This document shows, one piece after another, positions 10,424-60,146 of a stretch of DNA of 64,000 nucleotides. The stretch lies in IMG/VR virus record IMGVR_UViG_3300045988_163359. One strand, given 5' to 3'. Every line of letters starts with the position of its first letter. Within the stretch, counting starts at the first letter, position 1. The stretch is from a virus. The notes beneath the pieces are model-generated. The model saw only the letters and a program-made list of their open reading frames with translations, was not told the origin of the DNA and ran no database searches. Both the position numbers and the translations under genes were made by a program.

Positions 10424-11083
10424 ATGGCAGCAGATGGAAAAGTTGTTATAGAAGTTGAATTAAAATCTGATCAAGTTGAAGGTCAGTTAAATGAACTTAA
10501 AAATGCCTTTGCTGATTTAGGTGGTGTTGGTAAAGTATTTGGAGAAATGAGTTCTCTAGTTGGAACTTTTTCAAATACTTTTAAAGCATTAAGTGGAATT
10601 GTTGGACCAGTTGCAGCAGGAGTTGTTGCAGCAGTAACTACAATGGTAACTGCTTTTTCAAAATTATATGATGCTAGTAAACAAAATTTCTTTGAAAACT
10701 TGCAGAATATATCTGAAAAATTACAACCAGTTGTTGATATTGTTCAAAATGCTACAAACACCATTTTGGATTGCTTTAGTCAAGTTACAGATTTTTCATT
10801 TGATTTCAGCACTCTAATGGCAGATGCAATTGAATTTGAGAGTTCTATGGCTCGTGTGTCTGGTATAATGGGTGTTTTAGGTGATGATGCAAAGGTTTTG
10901 ACAGAAACAACAAGACAATACGGAGCTACCACTAGGTACACCAGTGTACAGGTGAGTGAAGCTTTTAGCTATATGGGTATGGCAGGATTTTCATTACAAG
11001 AGTCTCTTGCGTCAATACAAGATGTTTTAAATTTAACTACCATCGGTGCCACTGAACTCGGCATTGCCAGTGATATCGTGACT
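10424..11083 (+). CDS. tail tape measure protein, exon 1 of 3
   Basis: TP901-type TMP core begins here (..YGATTRYTSVQVSEAFSYMGMAGF..ASDIVT). The reading frame loses TMP character after 11083. Confidence 0.8.
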
Positions 11084-11377
11084 AAAAAATTGGTCGGTTT
11101 AGTAGAAATACTATTCAAAAAACATTCGGTGAATTGCTGGAAAGCTAAGTTAATATTGATACTACAAATTAATAATTAATATGCTAATCAGCAACCAAGC
11201 CATGGAAAGCCATAAAAGTACATGGAAGGTTCAGAGACTAGGAGAATGAATAGGCGAATAATAATTTCTCCCACGAGCGCCGAACACCTTAACAAGTAAA
11301 GTTGAAGGTGATGATATAGTCCCATCCTCTTATGAAAATAAGAGTTCTAGGATAAAGAGCCTAGATATAAGATAATG
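11084..11377 (+). ncRNA. group I intron 1 (ORF-less, 294 nt)
   Basis: 5' exon ends in U and can pair with GGTCG 11092-11096 (P1 with U:G). P7-like CAGAGACTAGG and GATATAGTC boxes. Ends in G. Shares the 16-mer TAGGATAAAGAGCCTA with intron 2. Confidence 0.7.
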
Positions 11378-30816: not shown

Positions 30817-30846
30817 TGGACTATATAACTTTAACTATGGTATAAT
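30817..30846 (+). promoter_or_regulatory. putative promoter with extended -10 (TGGTATAAT)
   Basis: TGGACT, 18-nt spacer, TGgTATAAT. Overlaps two internal IR-like boxes AACTTTAACT(G/A)TGG (30806-19, 30827-40). Confidence 0.4.
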
Positions 30847-30874
30847 GAGGTATATTTATAAGAAGGAGGTTATT

Positions 30875-31381
30875 ATGAATTTTAAACAAGCATTAGAAGA
30901 AATGAAAAAAGGGAACAAAGTTAAACTACCTTCATGGGGTGGTTATTGGTGTTGGGATGACACTAAGCAAACTATTATGATGCACTGTAGACCAAAAGAT
31001 GCAGATAAAGGACAAGGTCCTATATTAGATATAAGAGAAACACAAAGAGTTGAATATACTCTAAGTAATGTTTTATCTGATGAATGGGTAATTGCTAATA
31101 ATGAAAACTGTACTTTATTAGGTGGAACTCCTACTTTTAACTTTGGTGAAGCCATAAAATATTTAAAACGAGGATTAAAAGTATGTAGACAAGGTTGGAA
31201 TGGTAAAAGAATGTATTTAGCTTACGTAAATCCTTATCAATACAAAGTAGATGGAGAAGTACATAAAGATAGTTTATTTTTATCACCTTGGATAGGCATG
31301 AAAACAGCAGATAATAAATTTGTCCCTTGGCTAGCAAGTCAAACCGATATGTTAGCAGAAGATTGGATGTTTGCTGAATAG
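30875..31381 (+). CDS. tandem DUF2829 protein (Tad2-like, candidate anti-Thoeris sponge)
   Basis: Second half FNFGEAIKYLKRGLKVCRQGWNGK..GMKTADNKFVPWLASQTDMLAEDW is a canonical DUF2829 signature. First half FKQALEEMKKGNKVKLPSWGGYW...LSDEW is a shorter copy. Confidence 0.7.
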   Translation: MNFKQALEEMKKGNKVKLPSWGGYWCWDDTKQTIMMHCRPKDADKGQGPILDIRETQRVEYTLSNVLSDEWVIANNENCTLLGGTPTFNFGEAIKYLKRGLKVCRQGWNGKRMYLAYVNPYQYKVDGEVHKDSLFLSPWIGMKTADNKFVPWLASQTDMLAEDWMFAE

Positions 31382-33810: not shown

Positions 33811-34813
33811 ATTATTTGTAAATAGCATTTTTAATGCTGTTAATTCTTTATATAATATGATTTTTAAAATAGATCAATGGGATAGATTGTTTTATGAAAT
33901 GAAATTATGTAATAGAAGTGAAGAATATCCTTTGTTAATTTATCAGTCTGAAGATAAAGAAAAATATTATTTTACCATTCCAATAGGTTTAAATATAGAT
34001 GATTTTAGAAAACACAAGTTAGATATAAGTACTTTTCTTAAAGTTCCAAAGACTAATTTAAAAATTGAATATAAAAATAACTTAGCTTTAATTAGCGTTA
34101 CAGATAGCAAAATTAATAATAATTATAATGATTACTTGTTTAATGATAAAAAAGGTGTTCCAATAGGGATAGATTTAAATAATGGAGATATAGTTTATTG
34201 GAAATATTATTCGTCTAATGAATGTCATTTATTAATTGCAGGTGCAACAGGTAGTGGCAAATCAGTCTGTCTAAATGTTGTTATAAATAATCTCATTAAA
34301 AGAAAAGATGTTGAATTGTATCTTCAAGATACTAAGTATGTTGACTTATATAAATATAAAGATAAAGTTAAATACTATGGTGAAGGTATTAATGGAATAG
34401 AAGAAATACTAAACAGGTTAATTAATGAAATGAATAAACGATATATTGAAATAAGAAAAAACAATAAAAATTTTAACTCAATATTTTTAGTTATTGAAGA
34501 ATTAGCTACTTTTGACCCTAAAGAAGATAAAACTATTTATAAGTTGCTAGGTGAATTATTATCTAAGGGCAGAGCAGCAAGTATTTATGTAATATTAACA
34601 ACACAAACACCATATGCGGAAATATTACCTGGACTATTAAAATCTAATATAAACACTAAAATCGGATTAAAAGTTAATACCAAAGAAGCATCAAAAGTGA
34701 TAAGCGGTGATTATGATGCTTTAACCGATCTTAGAGGTAAAGGACATGGTAAAATATTTACAGCTACAGATGTAAAAGAAATACAATGTTTTTATATACC
34801 TAATAGCAATTAG
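33803..34813 (+). CDS. FtsK/SpoIIIE-family DNA translocase-like ATPase
   Basis: Walker A LLIAGATGSGKSV, Walker B FLVIEELA. YVILTTQTP and GKGH motifs. Confidence 0.7.
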   Translation: MVKLFVNSIFNAVNSLYNMIFKIDQWDRLFYEMKLCNRSEEYPLLIYQSEDKEKYYFTIPIGLNIDDFRKHKLDISTFLKVPKTNLKIEYKNNLALISVTDSKINNNYNDYLFNDKKGVPIGIDLNNGDIVYWKYYSSNECHLLIAGATGSGKSVCLNVVINNLIKRKDVELYLQDTKYVDLYKYKDKVKYYGEGINGIEEILNRLINEMNKRYIEIRKNNKNFNSIFLVIEELATFDPKEDKTIYKLLGELLSKGRAASIYVILTTQTPYAEILPGLLKSNINTKIGLKVNTKEASKVISGDYDALTDLRGKGHGKIFTATDVKEIQCFYIPNSN

Positions 34814-34828
34814 GAATATGTTCCGATT
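34811..34828 (+). repeat. 18-bp repeat TAGGAATATGTTCCGATT, copy 1
   Basis: Perfect copy. Its TAG is the stop codon of the FtsK-like gene. Confidence 0.9.
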
Positions 34829-35142
34829 GCAAATTACAAATTGGGAAATTAAAATTAAATTGTAGATAAAATAATTTCTCATTTTTGAACCCCAACAAGC
34901 AGGAATCGGTTTAATAACCTTTCCCACGAAAAGGACTTACTTTTAAAGTGGGTCCTTTTATTGTTTTAGGGCGAATTTGAAAGAGGGTGATTCCAATGTG
35001 GACTTAAGAAAAACATTTATATTTTAATTGAATTTTAATTATTAAACATTATGTGTGTATATAGTATTTAAGGCAATTTTCCATTTTTAAAGGGGTTACT
35101 AATTTGTAGTCCCTTTTATTTTGCAAAGGAGTTTGAAAAAAT

Positions 35143-35948: not shown

Positions 35949-36764
35949 ATGTCAATAGTAAAACCAACAATCGTTGAAAAATGGCAAAAGAAAAACAAAT
36001 ATGGTAGACCTGGAACTCCATTAAATTATACAAAAGTAGCAATTCACTATACTGGTGAAGCAGATGTTAAAGGTTCTGCTACAGTTAACTATTTTAACAA
36101 TGTAGTTGCAAATGGAACAAAAGTTAATGGTAAATATGTATATGCATCAGCACATTTTGTTATTGATCTAAACGGAACAATATATCAATTAATACCTCTA
36201 AATGAAATGTGTTATTGTACAAATTCAGCTAATAGTTACGCTATTGGAGTTGAAGTTGCAACAACAGGAAAAGATAATCATTACACAGATGCTACATATA
36301 AAAGTATGGTTCATTTATGTGCATGGTTATGCGACAGAAAAGGATTAGACTGTAAAAAAGATATAATAAGACATACAGATGTGGTGGGTAGAGCATATAA
36401 ATTATGCCCAATATATATGGTTCTTAATCCTTCAAAATACACTCAATTCAAATTAGATTGTGCTAATTTAAAAGCTGGTAAGATAAAAACATCAAATATA
36501 ATTAATTGTACTAATGGAAAAGGAAAAGTCACAGTTATACCTACTACTGCTACTACTAAAACTAAATACATTAGAATATTAAAAGATGTAAATATACATA
36601 GCAAAGCTGATTTTAATTCAAGCAGTGTGGTAGGTAAAGTTACCGCTGGTGGAGCTTATACTGTAGTAGAAACTATAAAAAGAACTGGAACAGATATGTA
36701 TAAATTAAAATCAGGAGTATATATCACTGCCAGCCCAAAATATGTAGAAGTATTTGAAAAATAA
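35949..36764 (+). CDS. endolysin: N-acetylmuramoyl-L-alanine amidase (Amidase_2) with SH3b-like C-terminus
   Basis: HYTGE..SAHFVID..AIGVEV..RHTDV..KLCP amidase_2 motifs. C-terminal YIRILKDVNIHSKADF..GAYTVVE..MYKLKSGVYI. Confidence 0.8.
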   Translation: MSIVKPTIVEKWQKKNKYGRPGTPLNYTKVAIHYTGEADVKGSATVNYFNNVVANGTKVNGKYVYASAHFVIDLNGTIYQLIPLNEMCYCTNSANSYAIGVEVATTGKDNHYTDATYKSMVHLCAWLCDRKGLDCKKDIIRHTDVVGRAYKLCPIYMVLNPSKYTQFKLDCANLKAGKIKTSNIINCTNGKGKVTVIPTTATTKTKYIRILKDVNIHSKADFNSSSVVGKVTAGGAYTVVETIKRTGTDMYKLKSGVYITASPKYVEVFEK

Positions 36765-36775
36765 TTCTATCGGAC

Positions 36776-36829
36776 GCGACCGATAAGCGACCGATAAGCG
36801 ACCGATAAGCGACCGATAGCGACCGATAA
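36776..36829 (+). repeat. tandem repeat, 5 copies of GCGACCGATAA (11 bp; copy 4 is 10 bp)
   Basis: Read directly. GC-rich island in AT-rich DNA. Inverted half-site TATCGG at 36768-73. Confidence 0.9.
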
Positions 36830-36910: not shown

Positions 36911-37042
36911 CTGATGATAAATAAAACTATTAAAGAACTTCCACTCTAGCGCAAATAGAATGTAGTTCTTTGATTACTCAAATGGCGATAAGGGTGGTTT
37001 TTAACATAAGTTTATAATCATTTTTCAAATTGTGATATTATA

Positions 37043-37299
37043 GTTTTAATCCTTGTTCAACTGGAATATATTCTGTTACTGTTACAAACTTTGGCCGAGT
37101 GTTCTCCAGTAAATAGTTTTAATCCTTGTTCAACTGGAATATATTCTGTTACTTAAATTGGATTGTTATAATTTAAAAGCAGGAAAGAGTTTTAATCCTT
37201 GTTCAACTGGAATATATTCTGTTACATTTCTATTGTTTTTTCTGTTACAATGAACATAACAAGTTTTAATCCTTGTTTAATTAGAATATATTCTGTTAC
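37043..37299 (-). CRISPR. mini CRISPR array: 4 repeats of 37 nt, 3 spacers of 36-37 nt
   Basis: Plus-strand repeat GTTTTAATCCTTGTTCAACTGGAATATATTCTGTTAC at 37043, 37116 and 37189 (all identical), and at 37263 (3 transitions). Spacers are unique. Strand inferred from the anti-repeat wobble pattern and the terminator. Confidence 0.85.
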
Positions 37300-37439: not shown

Positions 37440-37618
37440 AATACAAGGATTGAACTAATATATATCAATAATCTTGTAATAACAGAACATATTCCAATTA
37501 ACAAGGTTCCTTCTTCAAGGGATTCCCTTTTGCCTAAGCTACTTGGGTTTGTGTAATCCTCCAAAGGCATCAATTCGGGGTTAAACCTCCCTACATACCG
37601 AATTAATCTTGCTAGTGA
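37440..37618 (-). ncRNA. putative tracrRNA / omega-RNA-derived scaffold with anti-repeat (37476-37508); boundaries uncertain
   Basis: Segment complementary to the CRISPR repeat (23/26 core identities, 2 G:U-compatible changes, 1 bulge). 7-bp hairpin AATTCGG/CCGAATT at 37572-37604. Immediately 3' of tnpB. Confidence 0.55.
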
Positions 37619-38761
37619 TTATTGTTCGGTTTGATAATTTGCTAAATTTATAGCAGCATTTAAATCCCTATCAATTACAGTACCACATTCAGGACAAGTA
37701 TATGTTCTATCACTTAATTTCAAGTCCTTCTTAATATGTCCACAATTAGAACAAGTTTTACTACTTGGATACCATCTATCTGCTTTTACTAGCTCAATAC
37801 CTTTATATTTACATTTATATTCAAGCTGTTTTGTTATTTCATATAAACCTTGTTTCCCTATTGATTCTGATAGATGTTTGTTTTTCATCATACCTTTTAT
37901 ATTTAAATCTTCTATTACGATTTTAGAAGGATTCATATTAACTATATCAGCAGTTATATTGTGATTATAGTTATTTCTAATATTAGCAAGTCTTTTGTGT
38001 AGTTTATTAATTTCCTTTTCAAGTTTCACTATATTATTTGTTTTATTATAGATTTTTCCTTGTCTATTTTGTTCATATTTTCTGCTCACCTGTCTTTGTA
38101 GTTTTTTTAGTCTTTTTTCTATTCTCTTTATATGAGCAGTTTTATTAATATTTTTATATTTTTTGCCTGTACTAAGTATTGCAGTATCTTTCAACCCTAA
38201 ATCAATTCCTATTGTTCCATTAAGTTCTGAACTAGTGTAATCTTCTTCATCTACTCCAACTGATATATACCAATTAAGTCCGTCAAAAGTAACTCTAGGA
38301 TTACTATATTTTTTCACAATAGGTACATAGTTTTTCCTACTTAGTTTCACTATCCCAATTTTCGGCAATTTAACTTGATTTTCGTTAAATCTAATTGCTT
38401 GATAATTAGGCATGAATGAAGGTGTTGAGTGTTTTTTGCTTTTAAATTTTGGATAACCTATTTTCTGACCTTTTTTACAACCTCGAAAAAAGTTTTTGAA
38501 TGATGTACAGGCATCTGTATATGCTCCAACAAGTGCTATACTATCAACTTCCTTTAGCCAACTATACTCATCTTGTTTTTTTAGTGCAGTTAAATGTTTA
38601 CTCATACCCATAGCACTTACAAATTTTTCCCCTTGTTCTCGTCTTTCCTTTTGGAAAGCTAAGCACCAGTTGTATACGAATCTAGTACACCCAGCAGTCC
38701 TGAACATCAATTCCATTTGTTCTTTTGTAGGTTCTAGTCTTACTTTATAACTTTTTATCAT
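37619..38761 (-). CDS. tnpB: TnpB-type RNA-guided RuvC nuclease (IS605 OrfB family), 380 aa
   Basis: MIKSYKVRLEPTKEQ N-terminus. RuvC-I GIDLGLKD, RuvC-II VIEDLNIKG. Zn ribbon CSNCGH..CPECG. RuvC-III DRDLNAAINL. Confidence 0.85.
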   Translation of the reverse strand: MIKSYKVRLEPTKEQMELMFRTAGCTRFVYNWCLAFQKERREQGEKFVSAMGMSKHLTALKKQDEYSWLKEVDSIALVGAYTDACTSFKNFFRGCKKGQKIGYPKFKSKKHSTPSFMPNYQAIRFNENQVKLPKIGIVKLSRKNYVPIVKKYSNPRVTFDGLNWYISVGVDEEDYTSSELNGTIGIDLGLKDTAILSTGKKYKNINKTAHIKRIEKRLKKLQRQVSRKYEQNRQGKIYNKTNNIVKLEKEINKLHKRLANIRNNYNHNITADIVNMNPSKIVIEDLNIKGMMKNKHLSESIGKQGLYEITKQLEYKCKYKGIELVKADRWYPSSKTCSNCGHIKKDLKLSDRTYTCPECGTVIDRDLNAAINLANYQTEQ

Positions 38762-39373: not shown

Positions 39374-40297
39374 TTAAAATTTTAATTTTGCAAACTTAAA
39401 TAATCCAATTGCAGTAGCCATTTGAGAATTATCAACTCTATCAAAGTCATCAGAAGGTTCAAGATTTAAAGAAGTTCCACCTGCTAAATATAACTTCATT
39501 TCATCTTTGTTTATCCAATTTTCTTCTACTATTTGATTTACTTTTTCAGAACCTAATTTATATGCTTTCTTTTTAAGTAGATCATAATCATCAGAACTAT
39601 CTATTTCGTTTACACTTTTTGCAATTCCACTTGCCATTAAATTATCTTGTATTATTTTTAGCATTGTACTGTTTCCGTATTCAACAGTATTAGATAATCT
39701 GTCATTAAATTGGAAACCTTTATCAAAATATGATAGTTCCATAGTTCTGAAACCAACGTTAACAAGTCCTACTGGCTTATCTTTATTTACCTTTCCATTA
39801 ATAGCATAGTATAAAGCCGCATCGCCCTCTCTAGCGATTGTTACATCTTCTATAAATATTTTCTTAGTTGCATTTGTTATATTGTCTTTTATAGTGATTG
39901 TTTCGCCTTTATATGTATTTACTATGTCAGCTAATACTGATTTCTTATAGTTTTTATATGGTACTCCAAATACTACTTTTACAGTATCTTTTACTGCTAT
40001 ATCGTTTAGTGCTGATGCAAATAATATCTTCATAGTATCACTTGTTTTTGAATCTTGTGAATTTCTTATAGAAGAATAAGATTCTCTTTCTGCTAATAAA
40101 CCAACGAAATAGTCTTCACCTTCTATATTTAAGTATTTAGGTTTTTCGTAATTTTCAAAGTCAACTTTACCTGAACGTCCATCACCATATACTGACTTAA
40201 ATATTGTTTGTTTTGCCTCTCCATCTACTTCTGTATAAGCCTTAATGTAACCTCTACCGCCATCAAAACCTATAAATTGAACATCTTTTTTAGCCAT
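39374..40297 (-). CDS. parM: ParM/Alp-type actin-like plasmid segregation ATPase
   Basis: FIGFDGGRGYIKAY phosphate-1 motif, VNVGFRTMEL, YLAGGTS adenosine motif. 307 aa. Confidence 0.7.
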   Translation of the reverse strand: MAKKDVQFIGFDGGRGYIKAYTEVDGEAKQTIFKSVYGDGRSGKVDFENYEKPKYLNIEGEDYFVGLLAERESYSSIRNSQDSKTSDTMKILFASALNDIAVKDTVKVVFGVPYKNYKKSVLADIVNTYKGETITIKDNITNATKKIFIEDVTIAREGDAALYYAINGKVNKDKPVGLVNVGFRTMELSYFDKGFQFNDRLSNTVEYGNSTMLKIIQDNLMASGIAKSVNEIDSSDDYDLLKKKAYKLGSEKVNQIVEENWINKDEMKLYLAGGTSLNLEPSDDFDRVDNSQMATAIGLFKFAKLKF

Positions 40298-40330: not shown

Positions 40331-40502
40331 AATAATATCTTAATTAAAGTATATGATAAAAAAATACAAAAGTCAATAAAATAGTTTAAATATTAATAAC
40401 ATCTTAATTATTGTTTAAATTTTGTTAATATGTTAATATATATTTTAGTTAATATTTTATTAAAATGTTGTTTATAGTTAAAATAATGTTAATATCTTAA
40501 CC
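40331..40502. promoter_or_regulatory. parC-like repeat region upstream of parM
   Basis: AATAATATCTTAATTA (40331-46), AATAACATCTTAATTA (40395-410), GTTAATATCTTAACC (40488-502) and the related GTTAATATGTTAATAT. Confidence 0.5.
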
Positions 40503-43517: not shown

Positions 43518-43820
43518 ATGAAAAATAATAACATTAAAAAATTAGTTGAACAATGGGAAATTAAAAAATTTCTAGAGCCATTTGAAGGAGAAAAAGTTAG
43601 TGTATATGTATTAACTATTTCTGGAGTGGATTTTAGCATGTCAAATGCAACTGTAAAATATACAGATGATATTATTGAATTTAAAACTAAAAACTGTAAA
43701 ACAAATATGGTTATTCAAGCAATTAAAAGTTTAGAAATAGATGAAACAACAGAAGTTGCCAGAGTTAAGGCTAAAACTGAAAACGGAACTTTTGTAAAAT
43801 TTACTTATAAAAATATATAG
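43518..43820 (+). CDS. hypothetical protein
   Basis: GAAGGGG RBS. The stop codon TAG is the first triplet of 18-bp repeat copy 2. Confidence 0.5.
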   Translation: MKNNNIKKLVEQWEIKKFLEPFEGEKVSVYVLTISGVDFSMSNATVKYTDDIIEFKTKNCKTNMVIQAIKSLEIDETTEVARVKAKTENGTFVKFTYKNI

Positions 43821-43835
43821 GAATATGTTCCGATT
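43818..43835 (+). repeat. 18-bp repeat TAGGAATATGTTCCGATT, copy 2
   Basis: Perfect copy. Confidence 0.9.
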
Positions 43836-43959: not shown

Positions 43960-44018
43960 AGTTAAACTTTAAGTGTAGTACGATAAAGTTATATACCTAA
44001 AATTTGTAGGAGAAAATC

Positions 44019-44906
44019 ATGAAAGAAACTTGTATTATTCAATTAAATTCTTTTCCAGTGCAAACCACTTTAAAAACTTTGCTAAAAGATAGAACAACTC
44101 AAAAAAATATAATTTGGGCAACTAATAGTTATAATGAATTAGGACAACAATACGAATGTGATAAACAAATCACAATAGATTCATTAAGTAAACTTGATTC
44201 TTTAATCATACAACCAAGAATTACAAAAAAATCAAGTGAAAAACAAAAAAGAACTAGAAAGTATGCTGAGGTATTTACACCATCATGGGTTTGTAATCAA
44301 ATGATTAACTTGATAGACGATTCATGGTTTGGATATAAAGGAACATTTAATACTGAAACTTATAAAAATTGGAAAACATCAGAAAATAAGATTAAATTTC
44401 CAATATATAATAAGACTTGGAAAGATTATGTTGAGTTAAATAGACTTGAAGTAACGTGTGGAGAAGCACCTTATTTAGTTAGCAGATATGACAGTTCTAC
44501 AGGGACTCCTATTGATATAAAGAACAGAATAGGAATGCTTGATAGAAAACTTAGAATTATCAATGAAAATACTGATAATGAAAACGAATGGCATAAATGG
44601 GTTATAAAAGCATTCCAAAGCATTTATGGTTATGAATATCAAGGAGACAACTTATTAATTGCTAGAATCAACATTCTAATGACTTTTGTAGATTATTTTG
44701 AAAATAAATGGCATTTAAATCCAACTATACAAGAATTAGAACAAATAGCAAATATAATTTCTTGGAATATATGGCAAATGGATGGATTAACAGATAGAGT
44801 ACCTTTAAGTAATGAAGGTGAAAATACTGTAAATACAAAATGTAAAATATATAATTGGAAAGATAAAAAAATTGTTTTATATGAAAGTTTAAAAACAAAA
44901 GAATAG
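44019..44906 (+). CDS. hypothetical protein with methyltransferase-like boxes only
   Basis: KYAEVFTPSWVCNQM and LEVTCGEAPYL recall boxes of N6-adenine MTase / type IIG enzymes. No GxGxF or (N/D)PPY motif is visible. Confidence 0.3.
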   Translation: MKETCIIQLNSFPVQTTLKTLLKDRTTQKNIIWATNSYNELGQQYECDKQITIDSLSKLDSLIIQPRITKKSSEKQKRTRKYAEVFTPSWVCNQMINLIDDSWFGYKGTFNTETYKNWKTSENKIKFPIYNKTWKDYVELNRLEVTCGEAPYLVSRYDSSTGTPIDIKNRIGMLDRKLRIINENTDNENEWHKWVIKAFQSIYGYEYQGDNLLIARINILMTFVDYFENKWHLNPTIQELEQIANIISWNIWQMDGLTDRVPLSNEGENTVNTKCKIYNWKDKKIVLYESLKTKE

Positions 44907-44933
44907 ATATTCAACTTAATGCTGCAAAACTAT

Positions 44934-44951
44934 TAGGAATATGTTCCGATT
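44934..44951 (+). repeat. 18-bp repeat TAGGAATATGTTCCGATT, copy 3
   Basis: Perfect copy. Confidence 0.9.
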
Positions 44952-45075: not shown

Positions 45076-45114
45076 AACCGCTCTTAACCCTCATCAAGAG
45101 CGGTTGTTTTTTTT
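45076..45114 (+). terminator. rho-independent terminator
   Basis: AACCGCTCTT-loop-AAGAGCGGTT followed by T8. Confidence 0.7.
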
Positions 45115-45122
45115 GTAAAAGT

Positions 45123-45140
45123 TAGGAATATGTTCCGATT
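45123..45140 (+). repeat. 18-bp repeat TAGGAATATGTTCCGATT, copy 4
   Basis: Perfect copy, about 25-35 nt upstream of the IscB element left end. Confidence 0.9.
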
Positions 45141-45515
45141 TTCAAATAAGTATTGGAATGTTATAAGTCAATAACCCCTCCTAAATCACCTACGGAGATT
45201 ATAGAAGGGGCTTGTATTTCAATATAAGCCCCAGTATGACTCTAGATTTGGGGGTAAGGCTTTTGCCTTAATATTGTCTAGCCTTAGCTTGTCGGGATGT
45301 GCAATTTAGCACAGCGAATAAGCTACGTTAAGTATATCAATACAGCTTGGTGTGATTCCCTAGCACCTTTTGTTGTTCGGGCTCTGTAAACAGTTCTGTG
45401 AGGTAGGAACAGTCAACCTGGTGCAAGAAGTATACTTAACATTGGCGAAGGGAAAACTTCGTGTCGCCAACCACTTTTGGTCGGTGACTCAAATAACTCG
45501 AAGGAGGTATACTTT
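45141..45515 (+). ncRNA. putative IscB omega-RNA (guide plus scaffold; 5' end not mapped)
   Basis: ORF-free, visibly GC-richer than the flanks, many local hairpins (e.g. GGGGCTT/AAGCCCC, TAAGGC/GCCTTA). Directly 5' of iscB. Confidence 0.6.
45175..45210 (+). repeat. left-end imperfect hairpin
   Basis: CCCCTCCTAAATCACCTACGGAGATTATAGAAGGGG. Confidence 0.75.
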
Positions 45516-46898
45516 ATGGTAGTATACGTACTTAATAAAAATAATAAGCCGTTGATGCCTTGTAAGCCTCAACGTGCTAGAAAATTAATAAAAGAAAAGA
45601 AAGCAAAGATAGTAAATTATAAACCATTTACAATAAAACTTATTTACGGTTCTTATGGATATACACAAAACACAAATTTAGGTGTCGATTTAGGTTCTAA
45701 AAACATTGGTATAGCTGTAACTACCCAAAATAAAGTATTAGCAAAAGGTGAAATAGAACTTAGACAAGATGTAAGTAGTTTAATAGAAACTAAAAAAATT
45801 CTAAGAAGAGGTAGACGTTCTAGAAAAACTAGATATAGAAGATGTAAATTTAACTTTAGAAATAAAAGAGTTTTTAATGCTCCAAAAGGAGCAAAACTAA
45901 AAACTCTTAAAAAAGGTAGTGATTCCAAAAAGAACTGGAGAACACTATCTACAAACATAGATTCAAATAGACCTGTTGGTTGGCTGCCGCCAAGCATACA
46001 GTCTAAAATAGATAATACATTTTTCTGGATTGATAAATATTATAATTTACTTCCAAAATGCAATTTAAGTATTGAAGTAGGTAAATTTGATATGGCTAAA
46101 ATGATAAATCCAGAAATAGAAGGTGCTGATTATCAACAAGGCGAAGCCTTCGGCTTTTATAATACGAGATACTTTGTCTTTGCAAGAGATAATTACACTT
46201 GCCAGGTTTGTAAAAAAAATAAAGATAAAGTACTTCATACACATCATGTAATTTATAAAAGTAAAGGTGGAAGCGATAGAGCTGACAACTTAGCTACAAT
46301 TTGTACTGATTGTCACACATCTGAGAATCATAAACCAGGCGGCATACTTTATGAATGGATGATAAAAAAGAAAAAGATGAAAACTTATAAAGAACCACCG
46401 TTTATGAACTCAATGAGGGTAAAAGTATTTAAAAAATATCCTCAAGCTAACATAACTTATGGTTCTATAACAACACCAAGAAGAAAAGAACTTGGACTTG
46501 AGAAAACTCATTATAACGATGCTATTGCAATAAGTAAAGTTGAATGTATAAATCAAAACTGTGATGAAGTTTTTAAAATAAAGCAGTTTAGAAAGAAAAA
46601 ACGTTCACTGCATGAAGCGACAGCTAGAAAAGGTAGAAAAACTAAAAACACTGAAAGCAAAAGAAATGAGAAAAATACAAGTTTTGCAAATGGTTTTTAC
46701 CTTAATGATAAAGTAGAAATCTTTGGTCAAATTGGTTATATTACAGGTTTTTCTGGCAAATCATCTGCTTATGTAAAAAATATAAATGATGAGTATATAA
46801 CTATACCAGGCAAAAAATATAAACAAGTTTCAATTTCTGCCTTGAAATTCATAAATCATAATAATAATTGGCAATACGAAAGTAATTTTGCGATATAA
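45516..46898 (+). CDS. iscB: IscB RNA-guided nuclease (PLMP, RuvC, bridge helix, HNH)
   Basis: NKPLMPCKPQRARKL; GVDLGSKNIG; RRGRRSRKTRYRR; SIEVGKFD; CQVC..HTHHVIYKSKGGSDRADNLATICTDCH; HYNDAIAI. 460 aa. Confidence 0.85.
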   Translation: MVVYVLNKNNKPLMPCKPQRARKLIKEKKAKIVNYKPFTIKLIYGSYGYTQNTNLGVDLGSKNIGIAVTTQNKVLAKGEIELRQDVSSLIETKKILRRGRRSRKTRYRRCKFNFRNKRVFNAPKGAKLKTLKKGSDSKKNWRTLSTNIDSNRPVGWLPPSIQSKIDNTFFWIDKYYNLLPKCNLSIEVGKFDMAKMINPEIEGADYQQGEAFGFYNTRYFVFARDNYTCQVCKKNKDKVLHTHHVIYKSKGGSDRADNLATICTDCHTSENHKPGGILYEWMIKKKKMKTYKEPPFMNSMRVKVFKKYPQANITYGSITTPRRKELGLEKTHYNDAIAISKVECINQNCDEVFKIKQFRKKKRSLHEATARKGRKTKNTESKRNEKNTSFANGFYLNDKVEIFGQIGYITGFSGKSSAYVKNINDEYITIPGKKYKQVSISALKFINHNNNWQYESNFAI

Positions 46899-46932
46899 AA
46901 TTCTATATTACTTCAACATCAGAGAAATTCAT

Positions 46933-46971
46933 CCCCTCCTAAATTTGCCTACGGCTAAATTATAGAAGGGG
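46933..46971 (+). repeat. right-end imperfect hairpin
   Basis: CCCCTCCTAAATTTGCCTACGGCTAAATTATAGAAGGGG, a direct copy of the left-end hairpin. Confidence 0.75.
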
Positions 46972-47044
46972 ACTTCTTTCTCGAAAAGGTTAAATTGTTA
47001 AAAGTATTTCTATATTTTATATATGACCTATGATTATTTAGAAG

Positions 47045-47076
47045 AAAATCCATCTTGCGGAAGGTGGATTTTTTTT
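47045..47076 (+). terminator. rho-independent terminator
   Basis: ATCCATCTT-GCGG-AAGGTGGAT followed by T8. Confidence 0.65.
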
Positions 47077-58130: not shown

Positions 58131-58604
58131 GTGGAATGTTTGAATAAAGATGTTATGGAAGAAACAGAAATGATTTTAAAAAACATGAAATTTATAACTA
58201 TCTATATACAGCAAAAGGAAGAACATATAAAAAAGATAAAGGACGGAGATAGGGGGGCGATAAAGGCAGTTTGTAATGATATGGTTAAATCTTCTCCAAC
58301 TCATGCAATTAATAGACCTATAGAAAATGAAGTTATAAGAATAGATGATTTAATTGCAAAAGTTGAGGGAGATATATTTGAACATAAAAAAAACAGAAAG
58401 GTGATATCAGAAGTGTTTAAAAGCATGAGTGAAAAACAAAGAAAGATATTTAAATATATTTACTTTGAAGAAAAAACTCTTAAAGATATTGCCGAGGAGT
58501 TTGATTGTACAATAGCAAATGTACATTACATTAAAAAGAAAATAATCGAAAAAATGGCGGTGGCTTTATTTGGCCAAGATGCATTGAAAGGGGAAGAAAA
58601 ATGA
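58131..58604 (+). CDS. ArpU-like late transcriptional regulator (sigma region-4-like)
   Basis: MSEKQRKIFKYIYFEEKTLKDIAEEFDCTIANVHYIKKKIIEKM. About 150 aa. Confidence 0.55.
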   Translation: MECLNKDVMEETEMILKNMKFITIYIQQKEEHIKKIKDGDRGAIKAVCNDMVKSSPTHAINRPIENEVIRIDDLIAKVEGDIFEHKKNRKVISEVFKSMSEKQRKIFKYIYFEEKTLKDIAEEFDCTIANVHYIKKKIIEKMAVALFGQDALKGEEK

Positions 58605-59605
58605 TAATACATAAAACAATAATACATGTACTAGATACAAATAGTGATGCTCCAATATTAAATGACTATGAATGTAAAAATAGTTTAGAAGTAGATAAGT
58701 TTTTTCAAAAGATAATAACTAGAGTTTTAAAAGATGATGATCTAAGAAAAGCAAAATTCAAAGATTACAACGATAATATTGTAAAAAATTGTTGTGAACA
58801 AATAATCTACGATGAAAAGACATTCCTACCAAATTCAAAAGAGATAGCAGCATATTTATTTGAAGTAATGCAACGAAATGGTGAAATAGATTCTTGTGAT
58901 TTAGCAATATGTTTATACAGTGTTAAAGATGAAAAAAATGTAGCAATTATAAAACTTGATTATAAAAAACTTTACACTCATTCAATAGAATATGTAGAAG
59001 ATAAATTCAACATACAAATAGCATCAAATGAGATAGGCATACCTGAAACAGGTCGACAAAAACAATGTGTAATAGTTGGACCTAATGGAGTGAACGATTA
59101 TTATCACTTTAGATTATTAGACAAAGATGCAGAAAAGGACCAACTAGAAACTAAATTTTTAACAGAGTTTCTAAATGCTGAAAAGATAGAAGATGATAAA
59201 TATAAAACAAAAGTATTTAAGAAAACTGCAGACAACTGGATAACAAATGCAATATCAGAAGATATGAAAATGGCCGAAGATATAAGAAGTATGCTTAATT
59301 ATACTTTAAAAGAAAAAGAAACTGTAGATGTTAAAAAATTTGCTGAAAATAGTATTCAAGATAAAGAATTACAAGAAAGCTTTAATGAACATATGGAGGA
59401 TAGAGGTTTAACTGAAAACTTTGAAATAGACAAGAAATGGATTGAAAAGAAACTTAAAAACAGAAATATAAAAACTGATACTGGCTTTAGTATAAAAGGA
59501 AAGTTAACAGATTTTGAAGATCCAATGAAATACAGCTTTAGAAAAAATGAAAATGGAACATTCGATATAGTATTAAAAAATATAACTTTTTATGAGGAAA
59601 AATAA
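58601..59605 (+). CDS. nucleoid-associated protein (NdpA/YejK-like)
   Basis: MIIHKTIIHVLDTNSD start and size typical of the 37-kDa NAP family. Confidence 0.45.
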   Translation: MIIHKTIIHVLDTNSDAPILNDYECKNSLEVDKFFQKIITRVLKDDDLRKAKFKDYNDNIVKNCCEQIIYDEKTFLPNSKEIAAYLFEVMQRNGEIDSCDLAICLYSVKDEKNVAIIKLDYKKLYTHSIEYVEDKFNIQIASNEIGIPETGRQKQCVIVGPNGVNDYYHFRLLDKDAEKDQLETKFLTEFLNAEKIEDDKYKTKVFKKTADNWITNAISEDMKMAEDIRSMLNYTLKEKETVDVKKFAENSIQDKELQESFNEHMEDRGLTENFEIDKKWIEKKLKNRNIKTDTGFSIKGKLTDFEDPMKYSFRKNENGTFDIVLKNITFYEEK

Positions 59606-59606
59606 A

Positions 59607-60146
59607 ATGACAAGTGAAGAAAAAAACAAATTAGCAGAAGAAAATTTAGGATTAGTTTATTTAGTTGTAAACAAAGAATTTACTTATGAAAAAACTACAG
59701 AAAGCGATAGAGAAAACTACATAGAAGAAGGTATGATTGGATTAGCAAAAGCTATTAATACATTTAATCCAAGTAAAGGTGCTAAATTTAGTACATATGC
59801 TTATACATGCATAAAATTTGAAATAAATAGCTATGTAAGAAAGAAAAACAATCATAAAAGAAAAATAAACTATGTTTGTAAAAATTCAATAGATGAATAT
59901 ATAAAAACTCACAAAGATATTTTAATGGATACGAAAGATGCTTATTCTTCTTTAGTAAATAGAGATGAAATATTAAATATACTTGGAAAGATGAAGATAA
60001 AAAATATAAAGTATATCACTTTAAAACGTGCAGAAGGTTATACGTATGAAAAAATAGGTAATAAAATTGGAGTTAGTAAAGAAACAATACGAGCAAGATT
60101 GAATAAAGCTAAAAAAGAATTAATCGAATTAGGAATAACTGCATAA
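59607..60146 (+). CDS. sigma-70 family RNA polymerase sigma factor
   Basis: Region 2 NLGLVYLVVNKEF...EEGMIGLAKAINTFNPSKGAKFSTYAYTCIKFEI. Region 4 YITLKRAEGYTYEKIGNKIGVSKETIRARLNKAKK. Confidence 0.75.
   Translation: MTSEEKNKLAEENLGLVYLVVNKEFTYEKTTESDRENYIEEGMIGLAKAINTFNPSKGAKFSTYAYTCIKFEINSYVRKKNNHKRKINYVCKNSIDEYIKTHKDILMDTKDAYSSLVNRDEILNILGKMKIKNIKYITLKRAEGYTYEKIGNKIGVSKETIRARLNKAKKELIELGITA

Follow-up and report, generated by a model that had tools for sequence, protein, structure and literature searches.

The window, by which we mean the whole 64,000-nucleotide stretch of virus DNA analysed here (IMG/VR record IMGVR_UViG_3300045988_163359), carries a compact mobile element at 45167..46989 on the plus strand. 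Its 1823 bp hold a single gene, iscB, the scaffold of an omega-RNA (HEARO RNA) 5' of that gene and one subterminal hairpin per end, with neither a target-site duplication nor terminal inverted repeats. We consider that this is very probably a non-autonomous IS200/IS605-family element of the IscB (ISC) type, lodged in a human-gut Clostridium-type phage and operating by the mechanism set out below.

The IscB protein and its omega-RNA

The iscB gene (45516..46898, plus strand) opens with ATG behind a ribosome-binding site, AGGAGG, at 45502-45507 and encodes 460 residues. A preliminary description of this DNA had recognised an IscB with the full motif order, and protein family and structure searches agree: the product matches the NCBIfam equivalog NF040563 'RNA-guided endonuclease IscB' at 324.5 bits (cut-off 175), Pfam finds RRXRR at residues 3-118 (E 8e-53) and HNH at 229-272, and the structures of OgeuIscB and other IscB proteins match residues 2-371 at E 1e-36. 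The domains follow in the order PLMP (12-15), RuvC-I (GVDLG, 56-60), Arg-rich bridge helix (RRGRRSRKTRYRR, 97-109), RuvC-II (SIEVGKFD, 185-192), inserted HNH (CQVC, 229-232; HTHHV, 241-245; CTDCH, 263-267) and RuvC-III (HYNDA, 332-336). All catalytic residues are in place (D58 in RuvC-I, E187 in RuvC-II, H243/H244, N258 and H267 in HNH, H332/D335 in RuvC-III) and align with the OgeuIscB motifs LGIDPG, LELNRF, HYHHV and KDHYLDA. The protein shares domain order, catalytic residues and a HEARO-type RNA with OgeuIscB, which comes from a human-gut metagenome (PDB 7XHT, 7UTN, 8CSZ), but the sequence kinship is distant and the alignment leaves the C-terminal domain outside.

Compared with five relatives, iscB has a dN/dS of 0.10-0.15, which points to strong purifying selection. 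The exact protein is present in 139 sample blocks, and the six places listed for it are all phage contigs (51-74 kb). Its nearest relatives from Bacillales and Paenibacillus share about 60% identity with it.

Directly 5' of this HNH-containing ORF, positions 45167..45460 (plus strand) match the Rfam HEARO family RF02033 over its full length (model positions 1-211, pseudoknot-marked regions included) with 82.7 bits and an E value of 1.3e-16, and conservation runs on to about 45500. The score falls 0.3 bits under the gathering score of 83 because this clade carries two large insertions relative to the HEARO consensus, at about 45211-45265 and 45300-45340. In fact, the close clade (L001, L007, L008, L026-L028) also scores under the gathering score, whereas the relatives L010, L011 and L012 score above it (90.4-114 bits). 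Compensatory changes among relatives affect 22 of the 54 consensus pairs. The region upstream of iscB has a GC content of 0.43, against 0.21-0.30 in the flanks, and is free of long ORFs, the sole other ORF of at least 40 aa being a 50-aa one with a TTG start. An omega-RNA had been proposed here from GC content, hairpins and lack of ORFs; the covariance match and the compensatory pairs support it.

Boundaries, hairpin ends and movement of the element

The ends of the element are known to the base because one sister phage, the IMG/VR contig L009, has the window's site empty and, 1.6 kb away, a second site filled by an 1823-bp copy with 98.9% identity. The filled site in the window reads ...GTTATAA/GTCAAT...AAAAGG/TTAAATTG (slashes mark junctions), versus ...GTTATAA/TTAAATTG in the empty site of L009, L030 and others. 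At both sites, filled compared with empty, the two junctions are precise and without duplication, and the fixed target, TTAAA, lies on one side only. The limits first proposed, 45141-46992, were therefore slightly too wide: on the left, 45141-45166 is flank with the guide in it, and on the right TTAAA already starts at 46990, so that 46990-46992 belong to it.

Insertion is always immediately 5' of TTAAA. In six independent contexts (the window, L009, L001, L008, L026 and L028) the junction G/TTAAA lies 11-12 nt past ACTTCTT; the relative L027 was excluded from this count because its divergent tail does not allow the right boundary to be set. At the other end, homologous elements cease to resemble each other exactly at 45166/45167. 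No two contexts share the same flank, and ten distinct left flanks are seen among public contigs.

The two subterminal imperfect hairpins, both on the plus strand, lie at 45175..45210, at the omega-RNA end, and at 46933..46971, at the iscB-distal end. The first is also a hairpin of the HEARO structure, and the second is followed by an 18-nt tail, ACTTCTTTCTCGAAAAGG, up to the boundary. They have feet in common (CCCCTCCTAAAT ... ATTATAGAAGGGG, also given as CCCCTTCTA...TAGGAGGGG) and point in the same direction. Folding energies as DNA are -6.6 (top) and -9.4 kcal/mol (bottom) for the first and -10.7 and -12.3 kcal/mol for the second, so that the bottom strand folds more strongly in both cases; folding also exceeds that of shuffled sequences (z -2.1 to -3.7). 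The spacing is unequal, with 18 nt from the TTAAA-side boundary to its hairpin and 8 nt from the other hairpin to its boundary. Both hairpins are retained in relatives, and the pattern of directly oriented hairpins typical of IS200/IS605 elements, noted at the outset, stands. The end labels attached to it do not, since Meers et al. (bioRxiv 10.1101/2023.03.14.532601) name the ends with reference to TnpA: by that convention the right end is the one with the omega-RNA, and the left end is the one that lies distal to iscB and abuts TTAAA.

The element has moved recently: sister phages carry it at another TTAAA site or keep the window's site empty. The alternative site, A/TTAAA at 43533..43538 (plus strand), falls after codon 5 of a small gene (43518-43820); it is empty in the window and holds the element in L009, L015 and L019. 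The search for further copies and empty sites thus yielded both, the second site in L009 and nine contigs in which the window's site is empty. No near-identical DNA turned up when the element was compared by Megablast with GenBank phages and PLSDB plasmids, and a search of IMG/VR for other elements with the same hairpin feet (PATEs or tnpA-bearing partners) returned one sister contig as its sole match.

As initially reported, the element contains no Y1 transposase gene: a six-frame motif scan of the window gave no hits, and Pfam scans of 20 window ORFs found none. This absence is the norm for iscB and not a peculiarity of the phage copy; tnpA is found close to only some 1.5% of iscB genes (Meers et al.).

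The guide, the predicted cleavage and its targets

The predicted guide of the omega-RNA is TATTGGAATGTTATAA at 45151..45166 (plus strand), that is, flanking DNA outside the element. Its length of 16 nt is assumed by analogy with characterised IscB systems. These 16 nt upstream of the scaffold differ in every context in which a homologous element is found. In the window they are followed by GTCAA (45167..45171, plus strand; TTGAC on the TnpA-active strand), which we read from the sequence as the transposon-encoded motif of the omega-RNA end, while TTAAA at 46990..46994 (plus strand; TTTAA on the TnpA-active strand) would serve both as target and as the 3' transposon-adjacent motif (TAM) of this IscB. 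The two motifs differ at 2 of 5 positions. As GTCAA takes the place of the TAM beside the guide in the filled site, self-cleavage should be prevented, following the self/non-self logic described by Meers et al.

We propose that a Y1 TnpA encoded elsewhere, in the host or on another element, would act in trans and excise the iscB-complementary strand as single-stranded DNA, which, by the IS200/IS605 mechanism, would then be inserted 3' of 5'-TTTAA-3'. Transcription that comes in across the left flank would yield an omega-RNA with about 16 nt of flank (TATTGGAATGTTATAA) as its 5' part. Loaded with this RNA, IscB is predicted to make RNA-guided, TAM-dependent double-strand breaks in DNA that carries TATTGGAATGTTATAA followed by TTAAA. 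Such DNA would be the empty site, be it one vacated by excision or one in a related phage that shares the cell, and the occupied site would be spared because its guide match precedes GTCAA instead of TTAAA. Recombinational repair from the element-bearing copy could then restore the element or spread it by homing. This scheme draws on the mechanism in Meers et al. and in a review (PMC13565253).

The closest parallels are ISGst5-type IscB elements of Geobacillus stearothermophilus (Meers et al.). Like these, the phage element is a non-autonomous IS200/IS605 member with its omega-RNA upstream of iscB, a flank-derived guide, an AT-rich pentanucleotide TAM at the other end, a motif at the omega-RNA end two positions off the TAM and, as we infer here, a TnpA acting in trans. 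Unlike these, it has TTTAA, not TTCAT, as its predicted TAM in the TnpA sense, and it resides in a phage rather than a chromosome. There is also a likeness to the free-standing and intron-borne homing endonucleases of phages (T4 Seg/Mob; marker exclusion), in which a co-infecting element-less allele is expected to be cut and then converted (PMC13565253); here, however, recognition would rest on RNA plus TAM instead of protein, and the element can transpose to new sites.

In fact, potential targets are at hand. Guide and TTAAAT are intact, as an exact 26-mer, in nine related IMG/VR phage contigs, eight of which lack the element while one, a sister contig, has it at the other site; homology arms of 91-235 bp and 450-600 bp flank the target in these contigs. 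Given a perfect guide match with TTAAAT inside a conserved promoter of related phages, co-residence could lead to their being cut there and converted, or killed. We therefore weighed whether the element is kept mainly because it benefits the phage, as an RNA-guided weapon or gene drive against empty-site phages and prophages, by non-restorative homing and marker exclusion. Expression would come from the phage transcription unit in which the element landed. This account overlaps the reading we prefer and differs from it in the level of selection. The perfect targets, the arms on both sides, the occurrence of the exact protein on phage contigs and the strong purifying selection are all consistent with it, as is the company the element keeps: a group I intron and a TnpB associated with an array of spacers mark the phage as rich in such devices. 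Yet we found no sign that the phage benefits, plain selfish transposition accounts just as well for the intact ends and the two insertion sites, and the category is already present in the literature (PMC13565253). It is a tentative proposal, to which we give less than even credence, that the phage lineage has in effect recruited an IscB element for RNA-guided gene drive or for competition. If recruitment did occur, landing in a phage promoter unit would couple expression of the element to the phage programme.

IscB elements and homing logic being established, the non-autonomous IscB element described here adds no new principle. Its value is that of a natural, base-precise case, in which two sites are occupied by one IscB element within a single phage lineage and the exact empty target is present in many sister genomes. 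The letters of the DNA by themselves yield a guide, a predicted 3' TAM of TTAAA and a rule for telling self (GTCAA) from non-self (TTAAA). We envision it as a concrete system for asking if OMEGA nucleases drive conversion between co-infecting phages, and a compact IscB of 460 aa with an AT-rich predicted TAM could interest tool developers.

The probable phage promoter unit and the second nuclease

The element adjoins copy 4 (45122..45140, plus strand, outside the element) of a repeat, TTAGGAATATGTTCCGATT, that occurs four times in the window against 0.02 expected and was found in 65 stretches of IMG/VR phage contigs. Adjacency to a repeat had been noted correctly, but with a length of 18 bp; the repeat is 19 nt long. 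By its sequence, it appears to belong to a conserved family of phage promoters, as their upstream portion: T41, A42 and T46 are conserved past it over 21 distinct units. In repeat unit 4 a promoter-like site matching the consensus (45139..45167, plus strand) reads TTTTCA, 17 nt, TGnTATAA/G, and the insertion separates the fifth from the sixth position of the -10 box (TATAAT when the site is empty). The empty site of L030 (TTTTCA-17-TATAAT with an upstream TG) is the top promoter match of its region at 10/12. The interrupted promoter is listed in the empty-site scan only; the scan of the filled site omits it because the tool needs T at -10 position 6. The element sits inside the -10 box (TATAA/T), and its proximity to the repeat thus follows from the TTAAA target. 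An insertion into one copy of a repeated unit had been suspected, and the empty site in sister phages, TTAGGAATATGTTCCGATT-TTCAAATAAGTATTGGAATGTTATAA/TTAAATTGTTAAAAGTATTTCT, indeed has the layout of copy 1 at 34810. Other copies are not expected to be targets, as the guide matches the copy-1 unit at only 11 of 16 positions (hand alignment), with a TAM-proximal mismatch among the differences.

The predicted intrinsic terminator of repeat unit 4 (47041..47076, plus strand), also found past the empty site in L030, is now the first terminator 3' of iscB. Just upstream of the repeat, a terminator-like hairpin at 45076-45105 with a T-run to 45114 was read by eye; its loop of 10 nt is above the limit of the terminator scan.

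This arrangement tells against the mechanism proposed above and bears on another reading, in which the nuclease made at this site in effect lacks a guide, or the copy is not expressed, and the element persists passively. The insertion turns TATAAT into TATAAG within a conserved promoter register, and a transcript from the interrupted promoter would start about 7 nt inside the scaffold, so that the guide would be missing; the hairpin and T-run at 45076-45114 would let the 16-nt flank be co-transcribed with the scaffold only rarely. We nevertheless regard this as unlikely. Both the promoter and the terminator are known only as consensus matches, and transcription could plausibly run through from co-oriented units further upstream; IscB elements also tend to be oriented like the gene that precedes them (Meers et al.), and the ORF is intact and identical over many samples. 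Less probable still is a decaying IS relic whose function is gone, for which the missing transposase, in the element and, by the scans run, in the window, might speak; an intact ORF with full catalytic residues and low dN/dS, two conserved ends and near-identical copies at two sites in sister phages all argue against decay. A free-standing, protein-guided HNH homing endonuclease, as the label 'HNH endonuclease' on homologues in GenBank phage records would have it, can practically be dismissed in view of the full IscB architecture with RuvC motifs, the conserved structured RNA upstream of the gene and the transposon-type hairpin ends with precise TTAAA junctions.

The non-autonomous IscB element shares its replicon with a different OMEGA nuclease, as the preliminary description had said: a TnpB with RAGATH-18 lies at 37619-38761 on the minus strand. 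This TnpB is accompanied by an array of spacers, and the phage has a group I intron as well. We considered whether spacer 2 of the TnpB array, which resembles the IscB site by eye, is aimed at it and rejected the idea, its 14/15 match to 45152-45166 being at chance level (E 0.31); the best non-self match of this spacer lies in a lysin gene.

The element, its two sites and its ends

A sister phage contig in IMG/VR (L009/L015, UViG_3300045988_157167, 75.5 kb), whose backbone is 94-97% identical to the window, carries the same element at 98.9% identity in another place, past codon 5 of a small gene and equivalent to the window junction 43533/43534 (site B). Site A, which the element occupies in the window, is empty in this contig. 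Filled and empty junctions can thus be read at both places: at site A, GTTATAA/GTCAAT...AAAAGG/TTAAATTG (window) and GTTATAA/TTAAATTG (L009); at site B, AATAACA/GTCAAT...AAAAGG/TTAAAAAA (L009) and AATAACA/TTAAAAAA (window). Therefore, the element spans 45167-46989 (1823 bp), without duplication or ambiguity. In four further unrelated contexts (public contigs L001, L008, L026 and L028) the right tail of homologous elements also ends G/TTAAA, 11-12 nt past a conserved ACTTCTT, and ten different left flanks are seen overall. Taken together, the junctions and the second site are, as read from sequence, proof that the element is mobile.

Natural targets are at hand as well. Nine IMG/VR phage contigs contain the exact empty-site 26-mer, and only one of them has the element, there at site B. 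The flanks of these contigs match the window over 91-235 bp on the left (at least 98.9%) and 450-600 bp on the right (92-99.8%), long enough to allow homologous repair. That OMEGA systems might home between co-infecting phages has already been proposed (PMC13565253).

How such an element could move is suggested by Geobacillus IS200/IS605 transposons (Meers et al., bioRxiv 10.1101/2023.03.14.532601). There, TnpA cuts out one of the strands and seals the flanks scarlessly, the transposon right end produces the omega-RNA, a single AT-rich motif abutting the left end is recognised by both TnpA and IscB, and cutting of the donor joint by IscB forces recombinational re-installation. By analogy, the TnpA-active strand in the window would be the complement of the iscB strand. 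On it, the left end would present the target 5'-TTTAA-3', 18 nt and then a hairpin, and the right end, at the omega-RNA side, a hairpin followed by 8 nt ending TTGAC. Both hairpins fold better on this bottom strand than on the top strand (-9.4 vs -6.6 and -12.3 vs -10.7 kcal/mol). The preliminary description had correctly placed hairpins at the two ends, but under the TnpA convention its LE and RE labels must be exchanged because the mapping puts the right end at the omega-RNA; nothing else changes. The donor joint on the iscB strand would then read TATTGGAATGTTATAA followed by TTAAAT, that is, guide plus 3' TAM. At the filled site GTCAA stands directly after the guide match. Two of its five bases differ from TTAAA, which parallels the two-position difference between TAM and transposon-encoded motif reported for Geobacillus TnpB/IscB elements.

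Among the called genes neighbouring homologous elements, no Pfam match to a Y1 transposase was found; given that tnpA lies near only about 1.5% of iscB genes (Meers et al.), its absence is the rule. In another phage-like context (L001 5679-6287, also L002-L006), a serine recombinase (Resolvase) gene starts ~230 bp past the right end of a homologous IscB element. It is probably a mere neighbour, and Meers et al. saw no linkage of iscB to serine recombinases.

The IscB protein and its omega-RNA

The iscB gene (45516-46898, + strand, 460 aa) is preceded by AGGAGG at 45502-45507. Its product matches Pfam RRXRR (E 8e-53) and HNH, scores 324.5 bits against the NCBIfam equivalog 'RNA-guided endonuclease IscB' (cut-off 175), and solved IscB structures (OgeuIscB 7XHT, 7UTN and others) align to residues 2-371 with E about 1e-36. 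All IscB motifs listed from the sequence were recovered, in the order stated, and D58, E187, H243/H244, N258, H332 and D335 are conserved at positions aligned to the OgeuIscB catalytic motifs. The protein is under purifying selection, since dN/dS against five relatives is 0.10-0.15. An identical protein is recorded in 139 sample blocks; the six occurrences displayed lie on contigs of 51-74 kb, whose record names are reminiscent of human-gut cohort studies. In GenBank, only 30 of 50,697 phage records have IscB homologues, labelled HNH endonuclease or hypothetical protein in the annotated records among the matches listed.

The 350 nt upstream of iscB have a GC content of 0.43, against 0.21-0.30 in the surroundings, and 45167-45460 matches the full length of the HEARO model in Rfam (RF02033), today recognised as the IscB omega-RNA, with 82.7 bits (E 1.3e-16). 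Two insertions in this RNA hold the score just under the curated gathering score, which is 0.3 bits higher; more distant relatives exceed it with 90-114 bits. When eight sequences are aligned, pairing is kept through two-sided changes at 22 of 54 consensus pairs. Similarity among homologous elements begins exactly at G45167, and the preceding 16 nt differ in every context, as would be the case for a guide drawn from the flanking DNA.

The overall reading of the preliminary description is supported and sharpened: every testable sequence-level feature that defines an IscB or a non-autonomous IS200/IS605 element is present, while nuclease activity and a trans-acting TnpA are predictions. The interest is modest and lies in unusually clean natural evidence: the element is seen at two sites, empty targets are numerous, and both TAM and guide could be deduced with single-base precision.

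Insertion into a putative family of promoter units

The repeated unit described beside the element is real and lies next to it, but it measures 19 nt (TTAGGAATATGTTCCGATT) rather than 18. Four copies lie on the + strand (34810-34828, 43817-43835, 44933-44951 and 45122-45140), and related IMG/VR contigs show the repeat in 65 stretches. When 21 distinct units are compared, strong downstream conservation is confined to T41, A42 and T46 (TAnnnT), 17 nt past TTG/TTT at positions 18-20, which makes a sigma-70-like -35/-10 pair in fixed register; a promoter scan places such a site, beginning at repeat +17, in three of the four units. Directly upstream of the -35, the repeat contains the near-palindrome GGAATATGTTCC, and we infer that the repeat serves as the operator or activator portion of the promoters of one phage family of such sites. 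Terminator-like hairpins (34929-34959 and 47041-47076 from a scan, 45076-45114 by eye) end three of the four units within about 140 nt, unit 4 being measured on the empty site. Together they resemble a family of short promoter-to-terminator units, perhaps specifying small RNAs, that is widespread among related phages of IMG/VR.

The element sits between -10 box positions 5 and 6 of unit 4 (TATAA/T). Its TTAAA target overlaps TATAATTAAA, and this overlap, not a connection of IscB with the repeat, explains why the two lie side by side. The insertion probably weakens the unit 4 promoter (TATAAG), or else transcription would start inside the scaffold; the guide-bearing RNA would then have to come from upstream read-through, the main point bearing on function at site A.

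Between two repeat copies, a 972-bp segment (43960-44931) with an ORF lacking a Pfam match (44019-44906, 295 aa) is absent from L009; accessory genes around it look like exchangeable cassettes bounded by promoter units.

Other devices of the phage

The window belongs to the genome of a siphovirus-like phage (portal protein 46% identical to Clostridium perfringens phage portals) that also encodes HTH regulators and SSB. Three loci (30845-31381, 58131-58604 and 59592-60146) encode a protein with a Tad2-like anti-Thoeris domain and two proteins resembling sigma factors, one with region 4 only and one ECF-like with regions 2 and 4; these sigma factors could read the 19-nt promoter family. A ParM-like actin gene (39374-40297, - strand, ALP_N E 4e-18) and nearby AT-rich tandem repeats (period about 29, 40384-40500) may form a partition locus, which would suggest a phage-plasmid lifestyle. 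A group I intron (11073-11344, Rfam 106 bits, E 1.6e-26) lies within the structural-gene region, and five tandem copies of GCGACCGATAA, GC-rich for this genome, directly follow the lysin gene (36776-36829).

A CRISPR-like array (37042-37299, + strand; four 38-nt repeats AGTTTTAATCCTTGTTCAACTGGAATATATTCTGTTAC, spacers of 35-36 nt) adjoins an IS607-type TnpB (37619-38761, - strand; Pfam OrfB_IS605 and Cas12f1-like TNB) with a RAGATH-18 RNA as its 3' region (37507-37567, - strand). The array repeat matches, inverted, the minus-strand sequence directly 3' of RAGATH-18 (25 of 27 aligned bases, one gap), and the whole could be a TnpB-to-CRISPR intermediate. Spacer 2 imperfectly matches the phage's own lysin gene (36450-36475, 23/26), and an exact 11-mer, GGAATATGTTC, is common to the 19-nt motif and the sequence 3' of RAGATH-18.
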